From: Balanoglossus misakiensis
Taxonomy: Eukaryota > Animalia > Hemichordata
Direction of reading: 5' to 3'
Length of the DNA: 64,000 nucleotides
Assembly (NCBI GenBank): GCA_040954595.2
Contig: CM082597.2
Location: 7,093,849-7,157,848, forward strand
Of the stretch, positions 30,569 to 63,754 are shown piece after piece. Both the position numbers and the translations under genes were made by a program. The notes under the pieces were generated by a model. The model did no database searches and was not told the DNA's origin. It saw nothing but the letters and a program-made list of their open reading frames with translations. The first letter of the stretch is position 1. Every line of letters begins with the position of its first letter.

Positions 30569-31921
30569 TATCTATGTAAACATAAAATGTTTAGCAAATA
30601 ATGATATAAATGGTCAATAATACTAAATAGCAAAAAGCATTAATCGAATTATTTAGTTTTGGCGGAAATCTCACCCCATAATTGAGTAGCTAAGAATGGA
30701 TGGTGGCCATAGAAACTTGCATTGTTGACAGACTGATAAACAAGTATGCGCAAAACAAAAAGATGGTAAACCTGTGTTCAGGTATTCTAAATAAACAGAT
30801 TTACGTCAAATTGGATCATGTAAGCTTTGTCTCCAAATTCAGTCAAACTATTATTAAACAATAGTGTATGGAGTTGCATGCAGAGAAATTTATTGGACTA
30901 TGTACCGGCTTAAACTGTCCAAAGAAGTTGTTTGATAAACAATATTTCCATAATCCCTGTGAGAATTATGACAGCTGGGGTAAAAAATAAAATACTGAAA
31001 ATTTCTTCTTTTTTATTAATATTTTATTTACAATTTTCCAAATAACATACAGTGAAATCTGACTGTTACATGTAAAATTCAAGCAACAATTGTATTCAAA
31101 ATTTTGTACATTAAAAGAAAAATTGCATGACAGTGATTTATGAAATATGACAATCTTTTTACAACATGCATAAAAATTTACAGATTTAGAAATTAGTTTC
31201 AGGAAACAATCTTACATTGACAAAAATGATAAACATACATTATAGAAAATACGAGTAATTGTGAAATACTAGTATGGTAATGATTTGAATACTTGTGCTG
31301 AAATACTTGAAATATTACAATAATTTCTAGGTTCATTATGAAATGTCAAATAACATTGATAAAAACCCGAGTAATCCAGGGCATGGCAGTTTACATGTAA
31401 AACAACAAAAAAACATTGTTCAACGGTAGATATATACTTGCACCTACTTGTGGTAAAAATGTGACTAAAGTTATACAATATCAGGGTATACAGGAATGGT
31501 TAGATTTCTAACATGAAACTTGGACACTGTCTCTCTATGGCTGTATGTGAGCCAACATGAACTTTTACAATATAGAAAAAGTCAAACTACTTTCTCACAC
31601 TCTCATCACTATACACATTTGTGCACACAGGTGCGTGCACACACACACACACATACACAAACAACAACAATAACACATAAATATAAATGAATTCTTATGT
31701 ACACATTCTTTATATAATACTAGAAATATAGTATACTGTCTGAATAAGAAATTTATACACATGAAGGTTTTTGGCAACTTTTGCTCCACCTCCTTACATT
31801 TATGAAAATACAAATTGAATGGTTTTGATAATGAAGACTTATTCATTATCTGAAACCAGTAGTTTTGCGAAAAGGGTGTTTCTTTTCTGTTTGGTTCTTA
31901 TTTGATATTTCAGGTCATAGT

Positions 31922-34900
31922 TCAGGTTGCGGTCAGGACTTTCTGGCCACAAGAGGTAAAAGTAACTTTGATATGGTCACCTTTCAGACACAGACTATGT
32001 TCATCATCTGAGGATGAGCAACTATCATCCACGACAAAACCACCTTCCATCAATGCATCTTTCAAGATGTCTACATTCCCTGGTTGCAATGCATCACAGA
32101 GTTCAATCTGAAGTTGACTTTGTCGACATTTATCAGATTCTGGGATGCTGTCAATCAAAGCCTGAGTACTGCCATTCAGATCACAACCTTTGAACTCTAT
32201 GTCTTCCAATGACTCTTTGCTGATCAACTCTTTCCACTGATCTCTGCAAGTGTCATGTGATGGTGTTTTCCCATCAATGATGCTGACTTTGGACAAACAT
32301 GGCAGAGCTCGAACGCATCTACACACATTCTCTATTGAGAAAACTCTTGAATAGGATTGTGTTTCAGAGAACAGATAACCAGGGTGTTGAATTGTCAGTG
32401 ACTTCAGTTCAGATGTGTCTGACAGACCACAACATAGTTGTCTGTGCAATTCAGTCATAGCATTGTTCTCTTCTAGTAAGATAGATTCCACCTCAGTGAC
32501 ATCACACGTCTGTTCAATATAACGGTACAGTTTAGTGTCTGTTTTGACATTGACAAACTTTAATTTACATTCACTCTTAGTTTTGGTGTTGTTGTTGGCA
32601 GTCATGAAAGGGAAAAATGTAGTCTTTAAATTGTCAGGATAGGCTAAATCTAAATCATATTCCGATGCAAATAGAAGTTTGATGATTTTGGATGAGTTGC
32701 TGCATCTTCCACATGCAGTAAAGTGATCACCCACAAACTCCAATTGATCAATAACCATGCCAGCAACCACAACCCTATCAATTGCCTCTGATATTCTATC
32801 AGCACCAGATGTCATACGATATGGCAGGACAAATGTTTCAACATGTCGATAATCTTGAACAATATTGCAAAAAACCTTTGCAAAGCCACAATTGTCAATG
32901 AACCTGAATGAAACATAGGTAAAAGTCTGGGCATTCACTGGAGCCAAAGTATGTAATATTTGTTGACTGCGAGGCCAGGACAATTCCCGCCGATTATCAC
33001 AAAATCTGACATTGTTGAACCTATATAAATCTGAATAAGCCAATATGAATTGTGTCACAACACCAAAGTTCTCCCGGCAGAATTTGCAGGAACAATGAGA
33101 TATCTTTGCATCTATGGAAATGCTCTCCTCGTCTGTCGACAGACAATCAGAAAGTACTTGATGAAGTCCGACAGGGTCACAACATAATTTACATGTACAA
33201 ATATCAATTACAATTTCACGATTTTCAATCTTGGCAATAATCTGGCAGTTAGGTTGTGAGTGGATCGGTCTACAGCACCCACGGCAACTAGATTTAAAGT
33301 GCACATGTTTTGGTGTACTGGGTTGATATTTCTTCAACAAACCATGTATAGTTTTGATGAAATCTAACTTGACATATCGTACTACCAAACTAACTTCTTT
33401 GGCTCTAAATTTGAGCAAGTCTGAGATTATGCCAGTGATACGACAATCATTTTTATGAATGAAACCGGTGTGACCATATGAAAATGGCAACGACAGCTTA
33501 TTAAATTTGACTGATATTGCATTTTTCACCATTGCTTTTACATCAGACTCAAGGTTCTCATCATCTAAATCACATGTGATATCCATGTCCACTGTAACTC
33601 TGTCACTATCAATAGACGCATTCTGTGAAAACAACTGAAACTGATTAAGGAAATCTGCATTCTGTTTATACATCTTGTAACACAAGCTAGAAAACTTTTC
33701 AAGTTGAAACCTGGCAATGAGCTCTTGTTTACCAGCAAACCAGCTACTATTCTTACAAACTTCCAACGAAAACGAACCAATTGATTTACTCTCACAAAGT
33801 GCTGTATGTAATGTGTTCAAGAATGCTGCCGGTACATTGCAGTAAGGTAATTTAATGTCAAGTTGTTTGGCTGTAATCTGTGATATGCATTGGACTATAC
33901 CAGTGGTGTACATTATGTCATCCTTATGGCGGAACTGTGAACTCACACTGGAGAAGTCCATTGATAACCTACACAACTTTACATGGGCCACTCTTCTGTG
34001 CATGTCCTGTATGTTACAAATGTTCATGTCTTCCGAACTACCAGAATATGTGATGTTCATGTCTAGAGTAACTTCATCATTATTTATAGATGCATACTCT
34101 GAAAGTGTTTGATAAACGGTCACAAAATCAAAACTCTTGCCTTGTTGAAAGAAATGGATTTTAAACTTTCCAAACTTGGCAGTGACAGTATCATCAATCT
34201 TTACATCTTTTTCTCTCTTGGTACCATCACAGCTGAATCCTACATCAACTGACCTAATTGACCTACACTCACACAACACTGCATATGTAGTTTTCATGAA
34301 TTCTATACTGTCCATTGGTAATCTTTCAATGACCAGATTGTTGGCAGTTGTCTGTGACAGACATTGGACTATACCTGCAAGACCCTTGATACTAGCAGAA
34401 TCAGAACCTTGTCTTTCGGAGGTAGCAAAAATGCCAGTGAGATCAAATACGTTCAGTGACAAAGTGTTAAACTTAAAACCAACTAAATTCACTCTTTCAA
34501 GCATAGACTGTACATCAGCTGCAGACTTGTCCCTGAAATCACACTTAAATTCCATGTCTAGTTCAAGTTTATCATTACTCACAGATGCATACTCTGAAAG
34601 ACACTGATGTAGACTCACAATATCAAAATTCATGTTACGTGTCACATAACAGAAATTCAAATGTGCAAACTTTGCCTTAATATCCAGTTGACCTATGTTC
34701 GACAATTCCGCGCCTGGATCATAAAATTCAACATCAACTGACCCAAAAGACTTATTCTTACATAACTGAGTAAGTACAGCTGTTAAAAAGTCCATGTCGG
34801 GAATCAGCAATCCTTCAATCACAATTTTTAGTTTGTTGGCAGTAATTTGTGATAGACATTGGATTATGGCAAAACAAAAAAATATAGCTACGGTCTGCAA

Positions 34901-37900
34901 AACATTGAATGTCAATGACAGGTATTCAAAATCAACCAAAGAAACTTCTGCCAGTAAAGACTGTACATCAGACTTAATGTTCATATTATTGGAATCATAA
35001 CTGACTCCAATTTCCCGACTAACTCTGTTTATCTTACCATACTGAGATAGCAACTTGCACAGATCTGAAAAATCAAAATCCCTGGTATTTACAGTGTACC
35101 TGCCATTAAAGCAACTGTGCTTCCCCTCAATGTAAAGTGTACTTCTGTCAAAGGATCTAAAACTAGTTTGCCTTGACTGCTTGAAAGACTCAACGTGAAC
35201 AGCAACTGATCCAAGAGACTGATTTCCACATAACGATTCATGTATAGATTTTATGAATTCCATATCTCCAAAAGGTAATCCAGAAATGTCAAGGTTTTTG
35301 GCAGTAATCTGTGACAGACTTTGGACTATACCAGAAAGACCAAGATGACTTTGTTCTTCATCAGTATAATTCCTGAATACCAATGATAAATTATCAAATT
35401 CAACTGATGTCACTCCTCTCAACAAAGTCTCCATGTCAGAATCAGTGTTCTTATCTTTAAAATCACACATTACTTCCACATCTAGAATAAGTTTCTCATT
35501 ATGAACAGATGCATACTGTGAAAACATCTCACACAAACTGGATAAATCAAAATTTAAGGTATCTATGTGGTAAAAGCTTTGAAAATGTCCAAATGTAGCT
35601 TTGATGTTTGGTTTATTCTGTGATTCCAAACCAGCATGCACATCAACTGACCCAAGATAATTATTCCCACATAATGATGCATGTACAGTTTTTATGAACT
35701 CAATATCACCTACAGGTAACCCTTCAATGACAAGCTTGTTGGCAGTAATCTGTGATAGACATTGGACCATACTTGTCAAAGAGTTGATGTCTGTAGTTTC
35801 AGAATCAGAAGATTTCAAAAACAGATTATAACAATTATAATCAGCCATGATATCAATTTGTGTTTTCCTGTGTTGTGGGGAATAAAAACTGACTAACACA
35901 CTATTTGTCAGGTTACTGCCTTCGTTAATGTTTACAAGTTTTAAAACCTCAGAATGCTCAACCGGTAAATGATAAATGTGAAATCGTTCAGTGATCTTTG
36001 ACAAACCTTCGACTAGACACTTAATATTATGCAGATCACAGCTTTTCATGTTTGTATTATCATTCAAAACCTCGACTTTAATCTCCACATGTTTTGGATA
36101 GTTCAACTCGTCATCTCTAGCAGTAGTGGCATTTGTTTCAGAACATATTTCATTTATAAAATCAAAATCAGACACATTCTTCATAGTGACATCGCATTGA
36201 CTTATTTCATAATTTAAATTTATAGTCCATTTCCGGCATATATCCCCCCTATGTTCAGTTTTGAATGAGTCAACAATATTTCTGAATGTATCTGCTGTCA
36301 AAGAATTGGATGCAGACATCTCCAATGTGATGATTTCAGAACTAATATTTGGGCATTTCAAAAGCACTGTGTTGACATGTAGCATGTATTTGTCAGAATG
36401 GTTATCTATGATGTCATTAAGGTCTATTGTCAGATTTTTGGGTAAAAACTTAGCACAGTAAAATATTGTTTCCTCAGAATCACAACCACTTTCATACAAC
36501 ATTGGCCTTGCATCAAATGATTTATCTGGAAAAGGCCTACTCTCCCAAACCTTGAATACTTCACCAACATTGTCTTGCAAGTGACCACCAAGAAACTTCA
36601 ACATTGCATCATTCCTAAGTAAATAATCTCCAATAACTGAAAATGCAACAGAATCTTTAAATTCTGTATGGTTACTAGTGCATAGATTGGAAATGTACAA
36701 TGAAGCAAAATATTCCTGAAATGTGAAATGATAAAAGTTATAGCTTGGAGGTCGAGAGGTTTTTGTCAGAAGTCCCAACTTCTGTAAGTGTGGATGACCT
36801 GAAATTTCTTTCTCACTGAAAGAAAATTTACCAGACTTCAAAGCAGTATGTGAGAGTTTACTTAAGTAGAGAATTTCATCTCTGATTTCATCACCCTTTG
36901 GATCAATAATGTTATCTTGTTTTTCACAGTATCGCTTTACAACATAATCAATTAACTCTTTATAAAGTCCTGTGATTGTGTGTGGTAGTTTCTTTGTTTC
37001 CATCCAAATATCACACAACATCAAAGTATTCAAAGGACTCTGCAAAAATCCATACAAAATGCTGTAATGGGTGGATGTGTTCAATTCATTGATAAAACCC
37101 TCAACTGTTTCTGGTGTTACAGTTTCATCCATTGAAGACATTGCATTTATATGCTTTGTAATAAAAGCTTCTGCATTCTTTCTGTCAAAACCCTTAATCA
37201 ATAATTGTCTCTCATACATCTGTTTGGAGTTCTTATCCCTGATTTTGCGAGACGTTACAATTACTGGGCAGTCAGTCAGCAATGGTCGTTTTTCTCGGAT
37301 CATTTGCTTAAAGTACACTGGGAGATCATCAGTACTGACTTCATCAAGTCCATCAAAGACAAAACACACTTGTGATTGATTGCTTTCAACAAAACTCCAT
37401 ATCTCATCTGCTCCTTCGACATTTTGTAACAGGCAATCAAAAACTGCATCTTTAAGACCTTTTTTCTGATTATTTTCTGAATGGTATTCATGTAGATCTT
37501 TCAATTCAAAATGAAAAAGAAGTTTGAAACAATTGAGAAAGTTTACATTGCCTTTGGCCCAATCATATGCCAACTTTTTACAAAGAGTTGACTTACCATA
37601 CCCTGGATCACCTTCTATTAAAATTCGTCTCGGATTTTCACAATCATAAGTTCCTGTGAATAAATCTTGTATTGCAAAATCTCTGAAATGTCCATCTTTG
37701 GTTTGTAATTCTAATTCAATGAAGATATCTTCGAGTTTCAGTCTGTCTGTTCCATCCCACCATGGTAAGGGGAGAATGTTGGACTGTCTCTTGTAGTATT
37801 CTTGCAACTTTTGCTGGCACTTGATGACAACATCTGAAATTATTATCATCGAATATTTCTGTATTACTGATCACAAGAACCAAAGTATCATGGTGCACCA

Positions 37901-40900
37901 GCTAGCATTTCATCAATTGTGATTTTTTTAGCAGGGAGCCGTCATTATTTACGGCCTGGGGGGGGGGGGGGTCGGAGGAATTACACTAGAAACTCCAACA
38001 TTTTGAGAAACCCCCCTGCCAAGCATGCAGATTTTGAGAAACCCCCCCCTTCCAACACATAAATTTCGACTGCCCCCCCCCCCTAAAACCGGAACAACTA
38101 CATATCAATACATGTATCTGTATTGAACACCTATTGCCTGGCCATGAGGGCCATAGCGGCCGTTTATTACACCCGAGGGGCTGTGAGTTATCAGAATCAT
38201 ATGCTATTTCCCTGAGGCCGCAGGCCGAGGGAAATAGCATATGATTCTGGTAACTCACAGTCACGAGGGGGTAAAAACGGCTGCTATGGCCCAAATATAG
38301 GCCAGGCTATAGGTGTTTTATAATAAACCTCATGCTAACAGCTGGGAAAATCTTGCAATTTTCTCTTGAGGTTGGCAGACGACACCCTCCGCGGTGGCCA
38401 TTGTGTCAGACGACGTGACGCTGATTGACGTGACCGAGTCTGCGCACTCACGCTGGTCACGTGACCGGTTTATATTTTTTCTGCTATTTCCCTAGAGAGA
38501 TTCATAGTCGATTCTATTTTCCTATCACGTGACGGATTCTGGCGAATCACGACACAGTATTAGCATGAGGTATATTATAAAAATCACTATTACAGTAGTG
38601 TAGTAAAAGACCTTTCAACTCCAGGTTCACCCTGCTACATTGTAGGTGATCATCAGTTGCATCATGATGGATTGAAAAGGGTGAAACAACAAAACAATCT
38701 CAAAGTCACAACTAAATAATGATTACCGTAAAAGCTCACCCATAACCAGTAACCATCAAGTAGCATTGTGTAATTTGGAAAGGCATCGTTAAAAGTCAAA
38801 ATGATTATCAAACTTTGTTGATATAATAAGGAGTAATGTTTTTTATGCATGATCAGGCAAGCATGCCAATCCTTTATCAGCAAATTTTGGGAAAAATACT
38901 TTGATAGTGCAGTGTGGACACTCTGGTGTTCCGCGACCAGAGGTCGCGGAGCGCTGCAGCACTTGCACAGCACACAACTAAATCTTTCAGTTGAAAAACT
39001 TTGATACATTTCCCAAAAATGAGTGACCCCCCCTCTTCATCTACAATTTTTGAGAAACCCCCCCTGCAGCCTTCCAATTTTTGAGAACCCCCCCCCCCCC
39101 CCTTGATTCCTCCGACCTCCCAGGCCATAAACAATGACGGCTCCCTTAGGCCTCACAACATCTTTGAACATCACTGAAGTGATTCCTGTTTATAAATTTT
39201 CAAGCACTGATAACAAAATGATGGATGGGCTCAGATGTCTTTTTTTGTGATTGAGACCAGAAAATCTAATTCTCAAACCCACTTCATTTTATGAAGGACC
39301 AATTTCACCATGGAAAACAATAGTTTTGGATCAAACCATTGGGGTGAAAGGGTTCAACCAATTCATGGTGAGAAACGTACCTGGTGTAGTTTTAATGGTT
39401 GCCATATCCACGGTTGGCATATTCATGGTTGGTTTATAATCAGTAGTGCTTGGTTGGTCATCCTGTTGAGAATCTATCAAAATAAAATCTTTAATAATTA
39501 TTTTCCCCCTTTTTTGACATAAATTAATATAATCATTGCAGATGTTGTAAACTAAAAAGTATTGATTCATTTATAAGAAGAGGTTACACTTGTTACTACT
39601 ATAAAACCAAATGTAGCATTTATTTCTGAACATTGAAATCTGTATTCAAATCAAATTAAAATATTACTGGTGCAAATACAAGAATAAGTGTACCTGCGGT
39701 TGTAGTGTCCTTAACAGCTGAATCAGTTTGTTGCCTAGGTGATAGAGACTGCAGTCTTGCTACCAGTGGATAAAGTGCACGACGTAAATCATGTCTGTCT
39801 ATGTGGTGTTGTACACTTGTGGTTTCACCTTCTGGATCTTTCATCATTGTCATCATTTCAATCTGTGTTGCAGCTGAACTAACTGCACTGCTAGCAGCAA
39901 CAACGCCCACATCTGAAATACCTGAAATATGTGAAAGATAAACATGGATGGGTGAATTAATTGATCTGTCTGTAAAGATCACCTAGCCATAAGGCCAGTT
40001 TAGGAAAGCTGTGATTAGCGGCTATGAACAGGTTTGACTGGATTTTCTGGTTGAACATTTTGGGTGATTACGGTATTAAATACATAGGTACTAGTATAGA
40101 TATACTTGCTGGAAGTGCTTACCGTAAGATTCTGTTGTGTATTGAGTCTGGGAATGAGTGGCTGTCACTGCTGGAATCTTGGGACGTGTTGATGTCATTG
40201 ACTGCACTTCTCCGGTGACTGGATTTGGATGCTGTGAGGGAGATGGTAACTGTGGTCCTGCTGAGGTCCTCTCAGTTGGAAATGTTGGCAAATTTTCTCC
40301 ACTTCTGTCACTTATCTGTTTCTGGCTATCAGCTTCCATCCTAGACTCTGCTTCTCTTGTCACTTCCTCATATTTATATTCATCGTCAAGGTTCTTCTCA
40401 TATCGAACTTCTACATGCTTCGCTAACAAGTAAAGTTTGGCAGTTTTCAACAGTTGAATAAGTGTCTCAGGTTTGTCCCTTGACAAAAGTCCATATGCAC
40501 GAAGTGTTCCAAATAAATCGTATGGTTGTTTACTTTTCAGAATTTCTTCCCTTCTTCTTTTAGGTATCGAAGGATTCCTTAAAGCTGCCAGTCCATTGAC
40601 CAATTTAATCAGGTCATCTTTTTTTTGTAAAAAAAAAGAAATAATTAAACATTTTTCTGGAAATACAGTATATCTCATTTAATACTTTAATATTTTAGAT
40701 CACTGTCCAAATGAAAATGGGATGAAATTAATATGCTGCAAGGGTCATGATATGTACAAGTCATTGTATAGGCCCTGTGGCAAGTACTGGGTATGCTTTA
40801 TACTGCACATGATGTGCATGGCTGTCCTAAGCCCCCCCCCCCCCCCACCCCATGCTAACTTTGAGCGGGGAAGGTTAAATTTGTTCTCCCCAACATACCG

Positions 40901-41751
40901 GTAGTTGAGTTAAATTTGCTTTTGGGTTCATTAAAATGCACCTTTGAGCTCAGTATTTTATAAAATTTTCTTACGTGGGAGGGGGACACCCCCTCCCAAA
41001 CCCACCCCATTCACTTCATGGTTTACAATGTCTGCCCACACAGAATACAAATACTTAACAAATATAAACAATGTTCAGTTTTAATACCCACTGATGAGGG
41101 GAAACATCAGTTTCAAATTCTTTTCATGGGAGCGCTGTTTTTCTTTTTTACAAGATAGATAGGTGATGTGTTTTGCCGCGTGAAAGAAATTGAGGGGGTG
41201 GATTTCAAATTTTTAGCAGTTCGGAAGGGGGGGATTTGAAAATATTTCGGGTTGTTGAGGGGGGCATGTGAAAATTAACGGTAAAAAAAATTGAATTCTC
41301 CCGCCCCCCCCCCTCCAGAGGTGTTTGTGAATGCAGCCTAACAACCCTAAATTAATGACACACAGTTAGGTTACAGCATCTGTATGTCGTGTGTTAAATG
41401 ACATGAAAAATTTCTTTAAAAATGGCCTTTGCAGCCTAAGGATTATATCATGAAACAAACTGACAGCATGTAAGTGCTTGGATAGGAATGATTCTGATGT
41501 ATGAGATTGTCCTTGTGCAAATTAAGTTTGAATAAAAACAGTTCAGGTGTGCGTGAGTCATATCTCATGCACGTGTAAACTGATTGATGCAAGCACTGCA
41601 TCTCTGACAGAGAGCCTAGCTTGCTTGCACTTTATAGGTAGATGTCAATGAGGGTGCCCTTGATTAAAAAACATTCAAATTTTATACACTCACCATCTCC
41701 AATGTCCTGTGCCAGTTCATTGAGATATATCTCAAATTGATCAAAGAACAT
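31922..41751 (-). CDS. NLR-like protein copy 3: DED - extended linker - NACHT - super-repeats (about 2261 aa)
   Basis: Exons 41694-41751 (MFFDQFEIYLNELAQDIGD), 40123-40617, 39694-39921, 39381-39473 and 31922-37833, all phase 1 and in frame. Same NACHT motifs as copy 1; the terminal exon is uninterrupted. Confidence 0.87.
37933..39146. mobile_element. Harbinger-like MITE in the last intron of NLR copy 3
   Basis: TIRs AGGGAGCCGTCATTATTTACGGCCTGGG ... CCCAGGCCATAAACAATGACGGCTCCCT. Absent from the paralogous introns (~8640, ~23010). TSD unclear; ~20 bp of flank is lost. Confidence 0.7.
38121..38580. mobile_element. Bipartite inverted-repeat element nested in the MITE (possibly non-autonomous Crypton-like)
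   Basis: Module A (38121-38317) has IR ends aacacctattgcctggcc / ggccaggctataggtgtt and a perfect 22-bp central hairpin (38192-38213 / 38228-38249). Module B (38318-38580) has IR ends ttataataaacctcatgctaa / ttagcatgaggtatattataa. Confidence 0.55.
40800..41338. mobile_element. Truncated Harbinger-like MITE fragment
   Basis: 40920-41010 resembles 11450-11545 of the 10923-11767 MITE. One terminus, ccctccagaggtgtttgtgaatgcagcc|taa; the other end was not found, so the left boundary is approximate. Confidence 0.45.
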
Positions 41752-42234
41752 CTTTTGGTTCCCTTCAGTTTGAGATTAAGTTCTTTATTCAGGGATGAAC
41801 GACATCTGTCGTGCACCTATAAAGGAAGACATACCAGTGTCAAGTAAATAAAAAAAACACCAGTATCAAATAGACTTGTACTGTTTACTTTTGGTTTGAT
41901 GATTCATTAAGTTACACATCTTAATATATTTTTTAAAATTGATATAAAAAAAGCTTGCATATTAGGATTCTGAAACAAATCTCTCTTTAACAATATCACG
42001 TAATTGTTACATACATTCACTGGAATGCCCTGTGACACTGTAGACCAATCACAGCCTGTCTACTTTACCAAATGATCGCGGACCAATCAAATGTTTTGTT
42101 GCCAGTATACCTTTACGTACAGTACAGCTCAATCTGCCAACACCAATATGTTTGACGAGAACTGACTAGACTTTCAACACAAATATATGAGACTTCCAGA
42201 TTTCTGAGCGAGGCCTGTATAGTCTGTGAATTTT

Positions 42235-43445
42235 CTTCAACAACCATTAATACAAGATTTGATAATGACTTCCCTCTAACAACACACATTTCTTCGTAAT
42301 TTAGAATTTAGTACAAGGAAACAGAAATTCCATAATTAACCTCAGATGACCTCTGCAATACCTCTGTATACTTTATCACACAGGTGAACAATTACAAATA
42401 ATCATAATTTTGCAGTGATTTTGATTCTCTTTTCAATTATATCCTAACCTCATGCACTTATTTACACTGTCCTTTCTAAAGTTTATAGCATTTATACAAA
42501 AAATACCATAATAATCGCTTACTTTTAGTGTGTGACGACTTGCAACTGCAACACGAACCACCTCCCTAGTATAATGAGTTACTAGTAGTGAATTAATTAT
42601 TAACATTAATAGTTTAAGATTAGCTATGATGCCCTCTACAGTTGGCACTGCACATTACTTGCTCGTCAAAAACTTTGAAAACTTCCCTTTCCCGTTTCCT
42701 GACTTTTTCTTTCCCAGCTGTTTCCCAATTTAGGCCAGCTTGATTACACTCCCACATGTGAATAGTGATTACACCTGTCCTATCTTCCCTCCAACAACTA
42801 GAGAAGCCAAAAAGTCTTTTATTACCAAGAAGGATCTTTAAATGTATCTATTACCAGTTTCAGCTAAATAACTAACCACATCAAAGTAAAGTCTAAACAC
42901 TCAGGTTTATGAAAATGTGTGGTCTGTTATGTTCCCTGAGCTTTTGCCTGCGTTGTATTTTAATTATTATGTGCTGTTAAAACTGCTGAGTTTTGACAGA
43001 GTGTTTAACAAGGAACAGGCAGTGCCAACTGTAGAGGGCGTCTCAGAAATCATTAACTATTGATGTTAACAATTAATAATTCACTAACTCCTTATACTGG
43101 GCAGGTGGTTGGTGTTGCAGTTGCAAGTTGTCACTCACTAAAAGTAAGCAATTTTTTGCAGTATTTCTGTGTGTACTTAAGGGCTATAATTTTAGATAGG
43201 TAGTGTAATAAGTGCATGGGGATGCGGTATAACTGAAAATAACATCATAATCAATGAAACAATTTTGATGTAAAGATTTTTTTTTACCAGTGTGAGAAAG
43301 TACTCCATAGGTATTCCAGAGGTCATCTGAGGTTACTCATGGTATTTCTACTTTCTTGTATTAAATTCTAAATTGTGAAGATATATGTCTTTTTTGAAGA
43401 ATTTTTTTACCAAATCTAATGTTAATAGTTGTTGACAAAAATTCA
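42235..43445. repeat. Diverged inverted duplication (arms ~42235-42650 and ~43020-43445) centred on a ~370-bp spacer; candidate bidirectional promoter region
   Basis: gccctctacagttggcactg (~42631) vs cagtgccaactgtagagggc (~43020); aacctcagatgacctctg (~42338) vs cagaggtcatctgaggtt (~43317). The two genes diverge from here. Confidence 0.8.
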
Positions 43446-46400
43446 TTTTTATGGTTCAGTCAGTGTTTTCCCTTTGATCTTTGTCTGTCTCTCTGTATGC
43501 ATGTCTGTATGTATTCTGGTGTAAACCTTTTCCTGTGTTTTTTCATGTACATGTAGCTACGGTCAAGGCAATGGCAGATAATTATAGGGATCTCACGCTG
43601 ATGTGTTTATGAATGGAACTTGCGTTGATAGTAATTACGCACATAGCAATGAGAATGGAAATGCGTACCAATGACCGTATTTGGGCAACCAGGCCAGGGC
43701 ATGAGACTGAAAAAACTGCCCAGTTGTGAGGGCACTTTCCCCCATAGAATTACACAGCACTCGAATCATTAATGTGTTTGTTGTTTTTTCATTACAGAAA
43801 GTTTTACCTCCAAACTGCCACAGTTGACATTATTGGAATTAAAATGTTCTGAAATAGATGGTGGCACAGATTGTTATCTAACAGCTACACTCAAGCCACT
43901 CAAACACTGGTATGTAGACCAGATTTATAGTCGTGTTGTTCATGTATAACCGTTATTTATTTGCCATAAATTTACTGTGGTACTGGCAGTAAAACAGTGC
44001 TCCTTTGTCATTTGGCAACTGACCCACAGAACATTCTTTTGAAAACAAGCTGGCAAGAACATTGTAGGATAAATTTTGCTACGAAAAAAACTTCAAATTC
44101 AAAGTGCAATCAGAATTCAGTTAATGCAAAAATTCAAATTCAAATTCAACAATATATTAGCTGATTGTTCATCAAACTGCAGTTGACACAAAAAATGTCA
44201 GAATTATTCATTTACTTTTATTGCAGAAATTATTTACCCCCAAAGTGCCATAGTTGGCATTTTGAACATAATTAAAGGAAATGTTCTGAAATAGATGGTA
44301 ACACAGAGTTTTCTTCTAACAACTAATCTCCAGCCACTCAAATACCGGTATGTAGACCATTTTAATTTTAGAGTGTGTTGTATATCTATTAATCTTACAT
44401 ATATTTACCATAATGCAACAATGACATTGTTGGAAAGAAAGATTTTTTCAGAATATTTCACAAAAAATAAAATCTTTTTTTGATATTAATTTGAAAAAAA
44501 CATATGCACCGGTATACTTGTAGATGTTGCTAAAGGCAAACAATACAAGTCTACTTCATACTTATGTGCATTCCTTGATAGGTGTGACACATGAATTGAC
44601 TTACAAAGTGAAGTGAGCCAGATGAATAACCAAAGATGGCAGATTTAGATTTGGATCCATTCAGGGTGTATCTTATAAGGCTAGCAGGTGACATCGGAAA
44701 TGGTGAGTGTACATTTGAATGTTTTTACTCACTCATGGATATCCATCTATCAATATGCAGGGCTGCGACCACAGACATTATAACTCACACAAGCCTGGAC
44801 TAATTTTTATGCAAACTTGGCATAAGAATACAGTACCATGCATGGTCTTTAATATACAGAATCATTCATATACTCCTAGTTGTACTACCGTAATATGCAT
44901 GCCATTTTGTTTCTTGATATTGTCCCATATGGCTACCAAGGGACATTTGTCAAAAAACTTTTTTGTGTCTTAAGATGTATACCAAATGAATGTCTTTCAA
45001 TGTGGAATTTTGGACAGTGTTTAATGGTAACACTGAAGTATTTCATGAGAGATTTGTTCCAGAAAATGTTTATGTGTATAATCCTTTCTTTTATGCATTA
45101 AAGATGACCTGATTAAATTGGTAGATGGACTGGGAGCTATAATGAAACCGTCAATACCAACGGTTGTGAGGGAAGAAATCCTGAGAGAGAAACGGGCATA
45201 TGTTTTGTTTGAAACATTGTTAAAATTTGGACATTTATCAAGGGACAGACCTGAGACACTTATTCAGCTGTTGAAAACTGCCGGACTTTACATGTTAGCG
45301 AAGCACGTAGAAGTTCGATATGAGAAAAAGTTTGGCAAAGACTATCCATATGATGAAGTGACAAGAGAAGCAGAGTCTAAGACTCAAGTATCCACCACGG
45401 AATCTTATGGTAAGGACTTGCAGAATTTTACTAAGTAACAACAAGTGTACATTTGTATTTAATACCGTAATCACCCTGAATGTTCCACCGGAATTAAATC
45501 TAGTCAACCTGTATATAGCTGCCAATCACGGATTTCCTAAACTGGCCTTATGGAAAGGTGATTTGATCTGTATAGGCAGGTCAATGAACACACATGTTAA
45601 TTGCTCAGGGACAAAGTGGCCACTATATAGGGGTGGTCAAGTTTCTGTGCTGTTTTGAAAAAGATTATGGGGATACCAGTAGTCTACGCTTAATGCCAAA
45701 GTGACTGAAACACACAGCATTTTGAGGTGATCTGACCTTTGAAAAAGTGTCATTAATAAATCAAATGATCATGGTTAGAGGCTGTTCTCGACAATAGAAA
45801 TGCTTCATTACCATTCTTCATGAGGTTTTGAACGCAATATTATTATTTAAGAAAATTCAATTTTGAAAAATAAATGTTTGAATATTTGGAGTAGCAGTTG
45901 AACATTTAAAGTACCTTCGGTAATTGAAATATTTTTACAAGGAATTCTACACACACAAGTAATTAACCCTTTAATGTTTATCTTTCACATGCTTCAGGTA
46001 TTTCAGATGTTGGTGATGTTGCTGCTAGCAGTGCAGTTAGTTCACCTGCAACACAGATAGAGATGACGACAATGATGAACGATCCAGAAGGTGAAACCAC
46101 AAGTGTACAACACCACATAGACAAACATGATTTTAATCAACTATATTCTTTGATGACAAGACTGCAGTTACAATCATCTAGTTCTAGGCAGCAAACTGAT
46201 TCACCTGTTGAGGACACTACAACCACAGGTAAACTTGTTTTTAAAATCATAATTTTTGATCAACTCCTGTACCTCAATCGAGTCAATGAATCAACATGCC
46301 AAAATAATCAGTCACATATGTGAGGACATTCAGTCATATCTGGTTATAATTGGTAGATGAACATTTGGTGCAGTCTAACACTTAGAGTGCTTGGAACTGA

Positions 46401-46661
46401 AATATATACATGTACATGTGTACTACAACATTTGAATACGTACCGGTACTTCAATATTTGATAATAAATTCTACATTCGATTTTACTTGTATTTCTAATA
46501 AATATATCAGTGCTTTTTAGTTTACAACATCATGTCAGTGTTAATATATTGGATTCATTAATGACTTTTAGGAGAGAGAAAACATTTATTATTTAAGTTT
46601 TGTTTTATATTATTTTATTTTGATAGTTTCACAAGTGAATGAGCTTCAGGTTACTTCAACT

Positions 46662-48486
46662 CAGTCAGATCGCACGGCATTCATTAACATATGCAAATGA
46701 AGAAAGTACTTCAAACCATGTAGCCGTTAGAGTGGGCCCCGCTGAAGGGTCGCGAAATAGGCCATTTTTTTACTCGATATTATAGAGCTGTTTTCAGGCG
46801 ATGTGGATTATTTTAAGACAAAACCGTGGATTCACTTGAAGGTAGGTATACTGGATTGTTACTGAATGATTTTTTGGCAACTTCTGTCGAGTAGTTTCTT
46901 TGTAATCACGAAATTTCTGACGACTGTGAAAAAACACATAGCGTTGACATCCTCTCGATTATTTTTAAGCTGACCGTTACACATGGATTTTACCACGAAA
47001 TTTCAAACTTTTATCAAAATATAGACATCAAACTCCCTCTCTTTGAGTTTTCATTCACTTCCAAGCTTTGATAGTGACGATATGACCAGTTCAATTTTGT
47101 TTACCTTTCAACCTGTGAGCGCCATTTTGTTTACTTTTCAACCCGTGAGCGCCACTTCTTCTGCAAAATGGCGGGAGAAGACAGCATGCATGTGTACGTA
47201 TATACGCTGGCGCAGGCTTGATCCTGGGTTGTACCAGCTGCGTAGTTTTCCCTCCTCTCTCGTGCGAAGAAATTTTGATTGCTGATATGTAATCCCGAGT
47301 TTTACTAAACCCTAACAATTATTTTATGAAGGTTTGCCCGTCAAGGAAGCTCACTTTTTTAATTTTATTGTTCTTTCAGATTGATGAAGACTGATTTTTG
47401 TGGTGGTGGTGTTGCAGTTGACTTTTATTTTAGCTGTCTGAGTTGACAATTTATTCTGTATTTTATTGTATTTTTAACTCTTTATCCTGTATTTTGTAGT
47501 AGTATTTTGAACACTGTTTAATAAATAAATTACTATTATTATTATTTATCGACCCAATGCAGTGATGACAAATCGCTCGCCTTCAGACACAAATGTTGTA
47601 TTTATTGCATATATCATCGGCGAATAAAGGGAAGTGGTTTCGAAGTTACACTTGGCATTTTCGAAAAGTCTACTTATATCCCACGATGCGGAGAAAAAAA
47701 TATATACAAAATACGTCAGCTGAGCTCCTCACGTACGGTAAACCTGGCATTCTGTGCATGGGTAATCAAATATTTGTTTGTAGCCCAATGTAGGCGAACG
47801 GCGTGGATGGAGCACCCGGGCGCGGCACTCGTGCGATTGATCGATGTTGTGTCGAAATCAGGCCAGTAATTAAGTTAAAACTTGGCTGATATGTTACCTT
47901 AGAGTGTTATACACTATCCAGTAACTTTTACTTGACAAGTGTCTTTTAGAAACTGTTTTCCCCACGATAAACGTGTCGTTTCACGAGCAACGCAACACTT
48001 CCGTATTTACAAGCCTAACATGGAGAGGTCAACGTAGGGCCTATACTTCCGGGTCATATCGTCGAACTACATCGATTATTTTTAAGCTGACCGTTACACA
48101 AGCATTTCGAGTTAATTTCTTTTCACGGATGTTGGGACCGATATTAGACCTATCTGTCACGAAAACTTGGTTAACTTCCGAGGTCGTCTTCAAATGATTT
48201 TTGGCACGTTTGTGGACGTCTTTTCCGAGGTCACCAACATACCACCGAAAACACGCTAAAAACTACTACTATTACCGACAGATTCTCATAAAATTTACGT
48301 CTGCAGTGCAAAATAGGAATCACTTTCGAAATTTATCGAGCTAGCATGGTATTTTATTGTACCACGGAGTGTAAAAATCAAGTTGAAAATCACCTTGAAA
48401 ACTGGCCTATTGCCGTCTGTTTGAAAATTAACGGTCGCTGGCTTGACGAACTTTCATATGCAAATGAGCGCCGTGCGATCTGACTG
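46662..48486. mobile_element. Non-autonomous DNA transposon (1825 bp) with 17-bp perfect TIRs and a 4-bp TSD, inserted in ROCO exon 4
   Basis: AACT|CAGTCAGATCGCACGGC ... GCCGTGCGATCTGACTG|AACT. Internal 29-bp direct repeat tcgattatttttaagctgaccgttacaca at ~46955 and ~48072. No transposase ORF. Removing it restores an open exon homologous to the NLR PTMNMPTM exon. Confidence 0.88.
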
Positions 48487-50196
48487 AACTGACCCACCAC
48501 GCACTTCTGATACACCTGCACCAACCATGAATATGCCAACCATGCTGGTTGCAAATAGGGTAAGTAATTCTTGATATACTTTCTGTATGCCTCATAATTC
48601 GAAAGTGTTTCCACCATCACACACAGATATGATAAATTTGTCATCTGTCTGTGCGTATCTTGTGGTTGGCTGCATTTTCTATCAACTGGCCTATATAATA
48701 AAGGCGGTGAATTAATTATATGCTGATATTGATCTTTATGTCCATCTCTGCTTAATTCATAAATGTAAGAATTTCCAAGGCAATCTTGAACAATGTGATC
48801 TGGACTAATGGCTAGCAATAACACAAAGCAAAACCTATACATATGGTTCTAATATATAGTTGGCAATTTAATAATAGACCAATTGCAAATCTGGAGTTAC
48901 CAGAAGCTAACCATAGATTGGAATTCATCTGATTCGCTTGTATATAGCTCTTTCTTGTTTGTGGGGATCAATTTGCGGCACTTAGAGATATCATAATTTC
49001 AATCAGCACGTGCACGAAAGTGCACAACATAATAAGTTAAATTACCAGTACTGTTTATTTTAATTCCAACATTGCATTTCTCCATTTCAGTCTCAATCCA
49101 CAGCATTGCATGATGCAGTTCGCGAAGATAAACTGGAAGAGGCTCAAAAATTGATTAAGCGTGGAGTTTATGTCAGTGCTAGGGATGAGGTAAGTGATGT
49201 ACATGCTTACTTACTACTAGAATGACTTACCAAATGATTACATGCAAACAAATGATGACATGAAAGAATCTAATTTTGCACAAGCTTGTATTGTTATCTG
49301 TAGGTTGAGATCTGTAAATGTAAATTCCATGCCTAAGGAGCATCCTAAAGTTTGATACTGGATGATCTATTAATTGTGATCAGGCTAATAAAATACTCAA
49401 GCGTGATGTGATTCTATTGTGATGTTGTGATGTTGATGATGGATTTGAACTACTTATGCACTCCTAATGCTATGGTTTTCCTATGGTGAAAATATCTAAA
49501 GAGAACGTTCTATCAAAAACTATAGCACGGTGACATATTGTTAAATTCTTTATATCATTTAATGATACTCCTTTGGCACCTTTTGTGAAAATGCAAGGAA
49601 ATGACAAAACACTGTTTTCTTAAAATTATACATGGAAGGTTATGGAACTGACAATCATGCATTGCATCTGGGTCCTCATCCCTAAGTCTCTAATTCTATG
49701 GTTGTTTTCCCTCAGTTTGATACAACACCATTACACTGGGCAGCCAAAAATGCCTGTAGTGATGACATGGTAAGACTTTTACTGCAATCCAATGCCAGCG
49801 TCAATGTGAAGGACAAAGTAAGTTTGTAATTAGAATTATTGTAATGTCTATCTGAGAAACTCAACATTTGAAACGTACATCATTATCACTGTCCGATATT
49901 GTTGTATCCTGGTGTCCATTAACAATTGAATAATTGACATCTCTGAAATCGCTGGTCCAATTGCTTTGAAGTTGAATATTATTTGATCAATTAAGGTGAA
50001 ATTGGCTGTGGATTCTGCATGCATGTGTCCACTAACATTATGTCACTATTCATTTTTGACAGGATGGTAACACACCTTTACATTATGCAGTAAGGACTGG
50101 CCAAGTGAATATGGTGAGATTATTATGGGAATACAAGGCTGATATCAGCATACAAAACAAGGCAAGTATTGTGAATGGTTTAACAGAAATCGCATG

Positions 50197-50545
50197 TAAA
50201 GAAACAAAGTCTCTCTCTCGCTGCCCTTTTTTCCATTAATTATATTTGATAAGAGACAACGTTTGTTATTCTACATGTGGATATATAGTGAATGAACATT
50301 CAACCACACACAACTTCCATTCCTCTTATAGACAGGGGAGTGAAAAAAACTCGTCAAAATGAATAATCGTTCTTTACCATTTATTCATTTTGGGCAAGTT
50401 TACTCTCATATCATACAAGTGGGAAGGAAGTTTTGTGTGGTTGAACGTTGATTCACTATATATCCACATGTACAACATAAACAGTGTCTTGTATCAAACA
50501 TAATTAATGGGAAAAGGCCAGTGAGAGAGAGACTCTGTCCCTTTA
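50197..50545. mobile_element. Foldback MITE (long imperfect palindrome) in a ROCO intron
   Basis: Arms ~130 bp, e.g. tacatgtggatatatagtgaat / attcactatatatccacatgta; agtctctctctc / gagagagagact. Confidence 0.65.
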
Positions 50546-53500
50546 ATTGTGGTTCAAAATCATGATTGCTGATACAGATATACACCGTAGTACAAAATCC
50601 ACAGGAAGTACTTCAGGTAAATATCGCCAAATGTTGAACTTTTAAATATGGTAGGTAAAGCTTGAACAAGAAATACAAATACTCTGTTTAGGTTCTATAT
50701 TTATCATACCTTATAGAAAAAGCTTGTCTACTATGATGACCAGCGTTGGGCTCTATAGATCTGGCTGATGTAGATCTACTGAAGTTCTACTCTAGACCTT
50801 GATCTAATGTAGAAATTCAGTTTCCGTAAGGAAGAAAATTAACTAAACACTATAATCCATCTTCTTATATCGTAGGATGGCTATACCCCTTTGGATTTTG
50901 CAGTAAATGAGTTGAAGGTATGTATTAGAGGCACTATAGTCCAGACAAGACTATCATGTTAGTTTCTGTCACTTGAGCAAGACACTTTACTTATCATTGC
51001 TTCTAAATGCGCATGAGCCAGTGCCAGAGATCCTTAATTCTCTCGATCAAGCAAGTGTAATTGTAAATCGCCTTGAGCACATTAATCCTGTCTATAATTA
51101 TACATTGTATACTTATCATATTTACTAATTTAAAATTATTTTTTCAAAAGTGAATTTCTTGTACAAATGTAACCAATCTGAAGAAAGTGTTCGTATTACA
51201 TCGGTAGTTTAGACATTGATGTTTTTCATTAAAATCAATGTATACTCTTACTTCAATCCTTAGGGTTACAACACAAGAGAGAAATTATGTACCATATTGA
51301 CATTGCTCTTATGTTCCCGTATATCATCAACCAAGGTAAATTCTTATTTATATTTTAATTGGTACTTGGTCTTGCAACATTTTCATCTCTAGTGCCCACA
51401 ATATTATCCTTGTAAATTTAACAGTAAAGTAAATGATGTGAAATATTCATAACCTCAGACATGCAAGAATATTAGTGCAGAAATCCAAAAAAGTGGAGTG
51501 ACATCTTATGAGTTTAGTCTACAGAGTGATAGAATAAGTTGTATAAGGGAATTGTATGAACTTTCTTGGAGTATGTGTGTTACTTATTACTAATGTATGG
51601 TAAGGTAATTTGAATGGCACATGGTAAAATGCATTCATGAAATTAATTTGATTTGTATAAAAATACAAACGCAGAATATAATAGTCTTTCCTGCACTTAA
51701 TATACTTTTGATGGATTCATTTTTTTAGAAACTATTTCGCAAAGCTGGAAAAATCGCAATCATTGTAATCGAAAAATCTGATTTGCCGAGTGAAGTCCTT
51801 GACTTATCAGACGATGCTTTGAATGAGAAGTTGACAGCAGTTTACAACAGTGGCGAGAAAGCAAGTGCGGTTATACTTGGTGACAGCAATGCATTATCAA
51901 GGTTAGATGTATTATTGAAAGGTCGAGAATTAAGTTCATTGGTGTTATGTAATGTCGATATCAAGGAGATGAGAAACATAAAGGTATCGGAAAGTCTCAC
52001 TTTAATAAATGTTAAGTCTTTTGATCCCGAGAAAGTGATTGGATGGCTTTTGCCCTCAGCTAGGTATTTCACCTGTATTGATACTAAGATCCCTGTACCA
52101 TGGTCTATCCAACATCCTGGGTCATTTGAAATACTGAATGTAAGTCACTGTACTCTCCAAGTGAAAAAATCACCTCAAACAGACAGCAAAATGAAAGTAA
52201 ACAAATTACACGTAGCTTGTGGGAGCGTTAAACAGTTGTTCTTAACTAACAATGGTTTGACTGATCTGCAAGAGGACATCGGTTCAATTCCTGGTTTATC
52301 AAGATTGGATGTGAGTAACAATTCAATTAAGAGAATACCACCATCGCTGAACAAACTTGTTGATTGTGAATGCATCAGCATAGAAGGAAATCCAGCCATT
52401 TTAAGGTGCACAGAAGCTGGCTCCTCGTACTTGAAGGAATTTCTGAACACAAATACGTTGTCTAATAGGAATGTCAAGGTAGTTCTTGTTGGTCATGAAG
52501 GTGTAGGAAAAACAACTCTAGTGCAAGCACTGAAGAGAGAATCGTCAGATGTGCAGAAAACTGATGGCATAGATATCTCTGAAATAAATCTGAAAGAGAG
52601 AGATATAAAAATGACCGTGTTTGATTTTGCTGGGGATGTAGATTTTCTGGAATCACATTCACTGTTTATTACAGATGACAGTGTCTTTTTGGTCACCTTT
52701 GACCTCAGCAAATTTGCCATTAGTTCAACAACGAACAAGATGTCATCCGCACATCAAATAGGGAGAGTGAAATTGTGGTTGCAGACTGTTTTTGCATATG
52801 CTCCAAATTCTCCAGTTATTCTGGTGGGTACCCATGCTGATGCGCCAATGTTAAACAGGGATGTACTCGACTTCATTTGGCAGACGGTTCATGATACACT
52901 TGTTGAAATGAGAGACACACATCGCAAGCAATACCGGCAAAATATGCGCAGAGATTGCTTGGTGTGTCAGAACCAAGATGTGCTGAAAAGAAAGAGTATG
53001 TTTAAGGGATTAGCTGGATATGTGAGTATTGATGGTGATGAGGAAGTGGTTGATGAAAGTCAAATACCTTCTTCAGAAGGAAGAGCTCTGCAGACTTCTT
53101 GCCCACACATTGTTGGGTATTTTGAGGTTTGCAGCACAGAAAAATTCCCAAATTGGATATTATACAAGGGAAATAAGAGCATTGCACAGTTGCAAAAAGC
53201 ACTAACAAAGGTTTGTGACATTCTCTTGGAATCAACAAACCCAGAAATCCCTGAAAAGTGGAATCTTTAGCGAGAGAACTTAAAATCAGAACGACTGAAA
53301 CGTCCAAGCCCAGTAATGACCTACAAGGAATACCAGGCGATTGCTGGTAACATTGGAATTGAAAAGGGTGTGACATTAGATAATGCAACCAGTTTTCTGT
53401 GTAGTCAGGGTGACATAGTGGTTGATCCATCCAGATCTACAACTGGAGACAAGGGTCTGCAAGTGCTAAATGTAGTACTCGATCCTCAGTGGCTTGCTAA

Positions 53501-56500
53501 TAAATTGAAGACACTGATATCTTATGCAAGGGAAGATGGGTCTGGGGAATTCATTGATAACAATGGCATACTGTCAATGGAGAACATGGGAAAAGCCTGG
53601 GCAGACATCAAAAGTGAAGATCGTGGCTCACTTTTAGATCTTTTTACATCATTGCGTATCTGTTTTGCATTAGGTGATGAACAAACATCAGTTGAAGGGA
53701 AGAAGGGTTTTCTGTTTCCTTGTAAGTTACCCGTTGGTCAACCATCACAAGATAGTTGGTATCCCTATCCCAAAGACAAGGACAGACAGGCTAGTCACCT
53801 TTATCGATTTGGCTTTCTACCTCCACTGTTTTTCTGTGATCTAATAGTAGCAGTCAATGAGAAGGCCATCTTTGCAAAGTCAAGTCATCCCACATACACA
53901 CGAAATAACATTGTGTTTTGGTGCAGTGAGAAGCTGGAACCATGCGGTGAATGTGTCAAGTCAGGTGGTTTTGATAGCAGTGTTAATGCTGCACACCATG
54001 TGCGTTTTGAGTTGCTTTACCATAGCAACAGTATCCTTGTCAGTGCTAGAGGACCACATGCTTGCTGCCTCCTGCAACAACTCCAAGGTATCATGAAGGA
54101 TGTTCTCAACACCCCTCAGTACATAAATGTTGATATGAAGGTACCAGAGTCCCTATCATGCCCACATTGCATTGTTCAGGGTGAACCCTTCATTGGAGAA
54201 ATGACACAGAGTGGAAGCAGTCTAATATGTTCCATCCCCACATCACGGGGTCACACATTTGACAGCAGATTAGACCTACTACAGTGGCATGGTGTAGAAA
54301 GACCAATTTCTACCCAGACTAGATTAGACATGTCCAAAGACATGCGCTGCCCAAGTCACTTTGTTATGCTGTCGGTTAACGCAGGCAGCCTATCAGTTGT
54401 GGGTCAACTGAGACGGTATGTGTTTTCCCACTTCTCTGATGGTTATGCAGTTCACTTGCTTTGTGAAAACCCACAACAGTTGCATTTCATTGATTCCCCA
54501 GGATATCGAGTTAGAAATGTGAATGGTTTTCTCAAGAAGTATGGCACACATATGTGTAGAATTCTGAAGTTCATCGAGCTAGCAGGTGGTCTTCTGAAGT
54601 TCATTCCAGATCCAACCGGTACTGCTGCTGCAGCAGCAACTGATCAAACAGGTAACTTACTGTCAGAAGTCTTGGATGATTTCGGAAGCAAGTATCCAGA
54701 ATTGAATGACATATCCAGAGAGCCACTACAAAAGTCAATGGAGGAGATAGAAAAGATGAAATCATCACCACACCGCAGAGATTTCCAACGCTTTCTCGGT
54801 AAAGTTGATGAAGATGGACAGTTTGGGGGCCTACAGCCAATAGCATATGGCAAGGGTGTAATTTGGGTTTGTGAAACTCACTTTCGTGAGCTGGCAAGTA
54901 CACACTGCCCTTACTAAGCAGCTACCAATACCGATGAATTGATCAAAAAGCTCATAATAGTGTTATGTCAATGTTCAACAAGGACCTGAATCATCGGCCC
55001 TTTACCGGTATTTGTCCAGTTTCGCATTCAGTCGGTTTCAACCATGACCTCATGCAGAATTGATTGGTGTAATTAACCAACAGATGCACTTGTTGTATGC
55101 AAACACCTCCCACCTGTTGAATTCTCCCACCAATTAATGTGTCTGTCATTCACCCAATTGAATTCAAAATTCAAATACATCACTGACAAGCTACAAACCA
55201 GTGATCAGTGACCACCAAACGTAAATCATATATTCACACACTGTTATGTTTAATTTTCATCATGGCAGTTTCCTACCACACATTATGTGGCTTAGCTGCG
55301 AATAAACCGATATTCATCCAGAATGTCTTCTGGTTTTAACAATGTCTGTGTGATCGAGTACACTGGATTAAGTTGTACCCTACAGAAACGTTTGAATATG
55401 GAACATACTATTCAGAGATTGCAATCTTGTGACACAGGATTCACAGTAGATGCTATAACATACCAGTATATAGGTCTTCTACTGTGGTGTCATATTTGCT
55501 ACATTTATTAATCAAATGACCCAGGTTATCTTGATAGACAAGTTCATGAAATTTAGGTATCATGGTTATTAAGGATGTTTATTTTAACAACTATCTCATA
55601 GTTAAAAAACTTGATTGATGTGGGGAAATTCACATATTAATGAACAAAGTATTTGTGATCCATGAATGTACATCAAGTACTGTAATTTTGATATCTTCAG
55701 AGCTGGATTGAGTTTTGGGGTTAGTGGTATAGGGGTCACGATAATTTTGAGTGGGACAGATTTGCTGACCCACCCCAGCTGTAACAAATGAATGCTCCCT
55801 AAGCCAATGTTCCACTCAGAGCTATATTATTCCAATAAGTCCATTTCAGTCACCAGTTCCAACTGATATACAGTATGTTGCTTGGTGCTTAATGATTTAA
55901 TCGTCAGTTCTTGTAAATTTCATGAAATAATATTGACTTAGTGCTTCACACATTTAATGTATTTCTAAAGATATTAATTCCTCTTAAAGTATACTGTAAG
56001 TTAAAGTTATGTAAAATATTGTGGAATATTCCACAATTGCCTACTTATCTTTTGAAAAGTACAAGTGATTGTTACAGATATAACACCTTTAGCAAAGGGA
56101 GGTGATTTATATTCATACAAGATATAATTGTCCTCAGTGAAGTTTTATATCCACTACAACCATTTATAATCCTTATAATTTGGTAATTTACATTTGATAA
56201 ATTAAATAAAGTTTCTATTTCAAATGTGATTTTTGGCTTTGGGTAAATTATGCTAGTTCAAAGGCCTCATCATGTTCCAGCATTGCCAGACATGGTCATA
56301 CCAACATGTTCTAGAATTTCTGAATAGCACAACTTACCGGTAGTAGCTGCAAACGACAATTACTACCTCATTTTTGATTTCATTTTTTTAAAATCATTTA
56401 CTGTTCAAGGCCTACGTCTTCTAGTTTGAAACATTATCTGGCTTTTTGGCATACAAAGCTATTAATTGTAACCTGTTATGAAAGATTCTGTTATGACTGA

Positions 56501-59625: not shown

Positions 59626-63754
<4,129 letters not shown>

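Follow-up and report, generated by a model that had tools for sequence, protein, structure and literature searches.

A death effector head probably copied from NACHT genes onto a ROC-COR gene, since disrupted, in the hemichordate Balanoglossus misakiensis

Genes of the locus

In Balanoglossus misakiensis (Hemichordata), a 64-kb stretch of contig CM082597.2 (assembly GCA_040954595.2, positions 7,093,849 to 7,157,848 of the forward strand; here called the window, whose own coordinates are used below) contains three tandem NACHT genes on the minus strand, NLR A, B, and C, and one ROC-COR (ROCO) gene on the plus strand. This study concerns the N-terminal head of the ROCO gene, which encodes a death effector domain (DED) and was likely copied from the NACHT genes. 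NLR C (31919..41751, -) has an open model of 2,261 aa with a DED, a linker, a NACHT domain, and five repeats of about 155 aa, encoded by exons at 41751-41694, 40617-40123, 39921-39694, 39473-39381, and from 37833 to a stop near 31922. The ROCO gene (44636-54917, +; predicted exon model) lies head-to-head with NLR C, their start codons being 2,884 bp apart on opposite strands, while no ROCO gene lies next to either of the other two NLRs, A and B. NLR A (2600..10717, -) is also open, with a model of 2,202 aa, and has the DED nearest to that of the ROCO gene. NLR B (16944..24631, -) lacks the linker exon and carries a 1-nt frameshift near 21429. The top protein relatives of both the ROCO and the NLR genes are from enteropneust hemichordates (Ptychodera flava, Glandiceps, and Saccoglossus), with identity to Ptychodera flava of 53% for ROC and 51% for NACHT.

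All splice junctions reported here are predicted from sequence, and the in-frame ROCO model leaves out an insert at 46662-48486 together with one copy of its 4-bp target duplication. Coding exon 1 (44636-44702, phase 1) encodes helix 1 of the DED and has a predicted acceptor at 44582, upstream of the ATG; exon 2 (45104-45409, 306 nt) encodes the body of the DED; exon 3 (45998-46228) encodes an S/T-rich linker with a motif common to DED-NACHT proteins of Ptychodera and Glandiceps; and exon 4 is in two parts (46627-46661 and 48491-48559), the second followed by a phase-0 donor. Four ankyrin exons, all of phase 0 (49091-49189, 49716-49817, 50063-50161, and 50876-50917), a 72-nt connecting exon (51264-51335), and a last exon (51729-54917) encoding a region resembling leucine-rich repeats (LRR), ROC, COR, and a C-terminal region complete the gene. 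All acceptors are AG and all donors are GT except one GC (after 50161), and the phases are 1,1,1,0,0,0,0,0,0. An in-frame join after removal of the transposon, with phases 1,1,1 and then 0, had been proposed in the initial annotation, and the predicted sites fit it. The architecture read from that join, DED-ANK-LRR-ROC-COR, stands for ankyrin, ROC, and COR: Pfam Ank was found on three exons (E 2e-3, 4.5e-9, and 3.2e-10), and Roc (E 1.7e-16) directly precedes COR-A (E 3.6e-13), both above the cut-off, with the ROC motifs G1 GHEGVGKT, G3 DFAG, and G4 THAD in the last exon. The LRR match is weak (E 1.6e-4, under the cut-off), and the frame is now stopped by a TAG at the start of COR. Neither TRADD-N nor a C-terminal death domain was found in the window ROCO. 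One ROCO intron contains a very high-copy small element with inverted ends (50197-50550), likely a miniature inverted-repeat transposable element.

Origin of the ROCO head

The initial annotation held that the first four coding exons of the NACHT genes, with intron and upstream DNA, occur inverted in front of the ROCO gene, and self-BLAST confirms this, with a mirror at about 42.8 kb. The segment 44603-46250 (+) matches 10750-9156 (-) at 75% identity, and further upstream, DED-exon, linker, and exon-4 blocks match NLR B and C. The ROCO upstream block (42954..43445, +) is a mirror copy of the block before each NLR and has a conserved donor-like site after 43143; its counterpart before NLR C (42227..42651, -) has a donor-like site after 42523, 620 bp from the first. 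These two blocks are 78% identical (43019-43445 against 42651-42227) and place the mirror centre at about 42835. Since a donor-like site in the upstream block and an acceptor just before the ATG are common to all four genes, a non-coding first exon is predicted for each. Introns 1-3 are homologous to those of the NLRs, with local alignments of 112-493 nt at 80-89%, and so are exons 1-4 as far as about 48544, the graft breakpoint; intron 4 is not homologous. The four-exon head, introns 1-3, and upstream DNA were thus likely copied by inverted duplication onto an ANK-LRR-ROC-COR gene, and the grafting mechanism first suggested is supported by the mirror symmetry and by the shared introns and upstream block. 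Within the divergent gap, a 29-nt insertion found upstream of NLR C alone contains a kappa-B-like 11-mer (42687-42677, -); this is a weak observation, as the pattern has two matches in the window and was picked after the 11-mer had been seen.

The plus-strand head could also be what remains of a fourth NLR copy, in inverted orientation, from which no useful fusion ever arose, with the ankyrin-ROCO part expressed from a start of its own. Three in-frame ATGs within 48491-48559 could serve as such starts, and ankyrin repeats come first in the close ROCO relatives P0002 and P0004; however, where exon 4 of the NLRs ends in a phase-1 donor, the ROCO gene now has a strong phase-0 donor in agreement with the ankyrin exons. 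While the fusion itself is a product of predicted splicing, as a relic would allow, tblastn with a Ptychodera NLR places NACHT sequence only at the three minus-strand genes, and exons 1-4 are open and constrained though the upstream block has diverged by 22%. A relic is accordingly considered improbable.

Transfer of the block from an NLR to the ROCO gene is the most likely direction, since DED-NACHT proteins of other genera have the linker exon too: among 163 proteins, its only two matches are the Ptychodera protein P0037 (E 7e-13) and the Glandiceps protein P0038 (E 6e-5), both of this type. Three of the best four NACHT relatives have an N-terminal DED, the fourth having a HEPN domain. The DED of the ROCO gene (exons 1-2) is 83, 81, and 65% identical in amino acids to those of NLR A, B, and C, respectively, and in the DED tree it falls together with NLR A and B within the clade of window DEDs, at supports (92/84 and 93/92) that do not reach the starred threshold. 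The opposite direction, in which a ROCO head was copied onto the NLRs, was rejected, as the linker exon is common to NLRs of two other genera and to no ROCO relative. A motif of about 45 aa in the linker exon (45998-46228, +; 39694-39921, -; 9178-9393, -) is kept in the Ptychodera and Glandiceps DED-NACHT proteins despite their having another DED subtype.

Fold of the N-terminal domain

The head was initially called a DED, and this identification is supported by the predicted fold of a homolog, although Pfam gives only a weak score. Exon 2 alone, which lacks helix 1, reaches 17.6-21.4 bits for Pfam DED against a cut-off of 35.9, and full-domain homologs reach 21-32 bits. A HMMER search with the DED exon against 1.84 billion representatives returned seven matches, five of which share the whole domain including the exon-1 segment; four of these five score weakly for DED. 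The other two, P0159 (TPR kinase) and P0161 (amidase), were dropped as repeat-driven chance matches. A profile built from the five homologs gives the window DEDs 98-106 bits vs 12-33 bits for six canonical DEDs. The structural model of one homolog, P0158 (39% identical), has six helices and a tail (pLDDT 83). Compared with FADD-DED it has a TM of 0.84-0.90 by target length, with a Foldseek E of only 0.035, and a VIA Z of 13.4 at an rmsd of 1.6; its top 10 VIA rows are all DED proteins (Z 11.6-13.9), with pyrin domains lower. Placed in an atlas, the corresponding domain of P0162 falls with the pyrin (0.92) and DED (0.91) clusters. Judged by the modelled homolog, the head is a divergent DED subtype with the six-helix death fold.

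When longer proteins were searched by word index with the DED exon, none of 154 candidates passed; a PDB sequence search gave one chance match, and 326 pattern matches in metagenome contigs included no relatives. The same subtype is found on a different ROCO protein (P0162, with a distant ROC-COR) and on a GT4 protein (P0163), while P0158 and P0160 are short proteins with this domain alone and may be fragments.

Constraint and disruption of the ROCO gene

Changes private to the ROCO DED over 90 codons comprise six synonymous and three non-synonymous (pN/pS 0.15, Fisher p=0.005), while the corresponding synonymous/non-synonymous counts are 6/7 for NLR A, 3/9 for B, and 5/27 for C. Pairwise dS between the ROCO and NLR DED exons is 0.27-0.34. 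The ROCO-linked DED was under purifying selection, and the chimera therefore likely worked until recently.

The present copy has two lesions. A DNA transposon, likely non-autonomous (46662-48486, 1,825 bp), splits coding exon 4; its terminal inverted repeats are identical over 17 nt and 83% identical over 41 nt, and its 4-bp target duplication is AACT. Two of its inner open reading frames gave no match to Pfam, and a simple pattern scan near its ends found no donor-like or acceptor-like site. A form retaining the transposon terminates after 225 codons, 23 codons into exon 4. The second lesion is the in-frame TAG (53268-53270, +) at codon 888 of 1,436, which removes COR; its position is a sense codon in 10/10 homologs aligned there, and Leu in the four closest. 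An uninterrupted frame giving ROC and COR in one chain is accordingly absent from this copy, which is broken twice and is now likely a pseudogene. The transposon had been noted in the initial annotation; its place inside coding exon 4, the TAG, and the defects of NLR B had not. Apart from the single stop, the 1,062 codons of the last exon are free of frameshifts; each 0.01 neutral substitutions/site would be expected to bring 1.5 nonsense changes there, so the decay is recent relative to the graft.

Contigs from one DNA sample neither confirmed the lesions nor showed them to be polymorphic: no transposon-free junction was found among the matches listed (18 of 108 loose ends and 24 of 289 pieces), and the TAG was not among the 40 of 733 differences listed. 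The same contigs contain at least three versions of intron 4 around 48810-48911, with 0, 10, and 13 differences, which is a weak hint of a second locus, contig depth not being equivalent to copy number.

Given the early termination of the transposon-retaining form and the intact DED exons, it may be asked whether the insertion created a DED-only product of about 225 aa that would serve the neighbouring NLRs as a decoy or an adaptor, like short DED-only or CARD-only regulators. The short proteins of this subtype, P0158 and P0160, provide a possible precedent, if they are not fragments. The lesions look recent, however, so the selection on the DED mostly predates them. A premature stop with introns downstream would also likely trigger nonsense-mediated decay, and such a product is considered very unlikely.

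Divergence among the NACHT genes and other features

The NACHT domains of NLR A and C match PF05729 (E 7e-24) and have the Walker A sequence GDPGYGKS and Walker B sequence FVFDGLDE. The two genes are 56-77% identical in the C-terminal repeats vs 85-96% in the NACHT region. Divergence among A, B, and C is a mosaic, with a NACHT dS of about 0.11, upstream blocks that are 94-95% identical, and a DED-exon dS of 0.24-0.40; this pattern suggests gene conversion or head exchange among the NLR paralogs. Exon 2 of NLR C (40123-40617, -) exceeds its counterparts in the other genes by 189 nt and encodes a Pro/Ser/Thr-rich extension. The C-terminal region of the NLRs (33677-35998, 4289-6694, and 18699-21086, all -) has the five repeats of about 155 aa, and no Pfam match was found in 1,392 aa of it. 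One modelled unit has four helix-strand pairs (pLDDT 72); Foldseek found nothing at E<=0.001, with weak rows that include tropomodulin and TLR4, and the repeats are possibly a divergent LRR-like solenoid.

Outside these genes, the segments 63228-63779 and 62220-62400 (-) are exons of an unrelated neighbour gene, of which a 100-aa part was scanned and had no Pfam match; the first looks fibronectin-III-like by eye. An Asn-rich tandem-repeat stretch resembling an open reading frame (15054-15485 and 30111-30542, +) is duplicated downstream of NLR B and C and is probably a non-coding repeat.

Relation to other death-fold receptors

The window ROCO belongs to a six-member clade of acorn-worm ROCO proteins (support 99; quick tree, 24 rows), the heads of which include ankyrin only (P0002 and P0004), Rho-ankyrin (P0003), and three DEDs with FN3, a coil, and ankyrin (P0005). 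In P0003, from Glandiceps, a Rho-type GTPase precedes the same ANK-LRR-ROC-COR body, which could be an annotation fusion. P0005 is Saccoglossus kowalevskii LOC102801580, a RefSeq prediction of 2,253 aa with the order DEDx3-FN3-coil-ANK-(LRR-like)-ROC-COR. Like the window ROCO, it has an N-terminal DED followed by ankyrin, LRR-like, ROC, and COR regions, with 39% identity over 986 aa. It differs in having three DEDs of another subtype (16-27% identical to the window DED), FN3, and a long coiled coil, and in having no NLR linker motif; because of the other subtype and the missing motif, it is likely an independent graft.

In sponges, supplement file 4 of PMC8195603 includes Amphimedon XP_019861208.1, with DED, TRADDN, Ankyrin, APGTPase, COR, and Death, and the supplement also has DED+GT4 proteins. 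Trichoplax ROCOs are described as carrying CARD or death domains in PMC4104024, and examples of, or background to, TIR- and death-domain ROCOs appear in PMC5094078, PMC9334734, and PMC6337361. The Amphimedon and Trichoplax proteins likewise combine a kinase-less ROC-COR switch, a repeat region, and a death-fold domain by lineage-specific shuffling; in the window, however, the donor gene of the graft, its breakpoint, and its direction are legible in the DNA, the donor being an adjacent NACHT gene. The DED+ANK+ROC+COR combination is not new, being on record in Saccoglossus and in a sponge, so the novelty initially suggested for DED-ANK-LRR-ROC-COR is overstated. Adaptor sharing also has a bacterial analogue: section 7 of PMC8195603 describes EAD/bDLD conflict systems in which one adaptor domain is common to STAND ATPases and AP-GTPases. 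These systems are alike in placing one homotypic adaptor domain on different NTPase switches in multiple copies, but they are prokaryotic, use other adaptor families, and have lectin-type sensors.

Shuffling of N-terminal death folds has been described for invertebrate NLRs in PMC3879445, and DED-headed RLRs in PMC8662601. The window NLRs resemble the DED-NACHT proteins P0037 of Ptychodera and P0038 and P0039 of Glandiceps in their DED-linker-NACHT order and intact Walker A and B, and share with invertebrate DED-NACHT proteins tandem duplication and swapped N-termini (HEPN on P0040). They differ from P0037, P0038, and P0039 in their DED subtype and in having C-terminal repeats of about 155 aa without a Pfam LRR match. 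In P0040, from Ptychodera, HEPN replaces the DED on a related NACHT, which might reflect a fusion made in annotation.

Plant paired NLRs such as RRS1/RPS4, RGA4/RGA5, and Pik-1/Pik-2 are divergent, closely spaced genes that both encode NB-ARC NLRs and divide their labour. NLR C and the ROCO gene are also divergent and close, and could be read as an obligate or co-regulated pair with one short divergent promoter region, in which the DEDs co-assemble and one protein senses while the other executes. The spacing of the start codons and of the predicted first-exon donors would suit a pair, as would a constrained ROCO DED and heads that are 65-83% identical in a domain that polymerises homotypically (FADD-DED filament entries). 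However, the head-to-head layout follows from the inversion as a by-product, and each gene has its own upstream block, as do the partnerless NLR A and B. Among the three NLR DEDs, that of the neighbouring NLR C is the least similar and bears no sign of constraint; NLR A and C are open, but the ROCO copy is broken. Unlike the plant pairs, one partner is a ROCO GTPase, so the two are not both NLRs, and the effector head is on both genes. Such a pair is judged unlikely, and the working paired immune system envisaged in the initial annotation is not supported for this copy because of the transposon in exon 4 and the nonsense codon before COR, with A and B partnerless. It is also unlikely that, where alleles or paralogs lack the transposon, NLR C and the DED-ROCO gene are transcribed divergently and induced together as a unit in which near-identical DEDs co-polymerise, which would be the first animal immune pair of a NACHT ATPase and a ROC-COR GTPase; if true, it would give direct evidence for kinase-less ROCO proteins as NLR-like receptors. 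In literature searched mostly without subscription journals, no paper was found that describes a head graft from an NLR to a ROCO gene or a pairing of the two.

Proposed function and significance

It is fairly probable that the head was mirror-copied from the DED-NACHT genes and that the chimera was a GTPase-switched receptor with a NACHT-type DED output until the transposon and the stop codon, likely recently, broke this copy. From general knowledge of these domains, the ankyrin/LRR region would sense, a GTP-dependent ROC-COR nucleotide switch would cluster the DEDs, and these would recruit FADD- or caspase-8-like partners, the same as those of the NACHT proteins. The kinase-less ROCO receptor would then act in parallel with the NACHT proteins rather than depend on them.

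Several points weigh against this reading. Tree support for the nesting of the ROCO DED does not reach the tool's threshold, and a tree built from the nucleotides of exon 2 does not resolve it. The window DEDs are only 19-25% identical to those of the Ptychodera and Glandiceps NLR relatives and form a separate group (95/98), so the window DED itself was likely swapped at an earlier time, which complicates a simple story. The junction of exon 4 with the ankyrin exons is predicted, the fold was modelled for a homolog of the window's spliced DED, and adaptor recruitment and function are argued from general knowledge. The stop codon was read from the assembled sequence, and the selection on the DED could partly date from the time its exons spent in another NLR copy.

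The proposal that kinase-less ROCO proteins are NLR-like immune receptors has drawn mainly on lists of domains. The value of this locus is limited by the broken copy, by a domain mix already on record, and by a function argued from general knowledge; nevertheless, the exon shuffling between two receptor families is real and well resolved here, and there is evidence of past selection on the chimera. At the nucleotide level, it presents an NLR effector head copied onto a ROCO gene and then kept by purifying selection, which suggests that the two types of switch can drive the same output.

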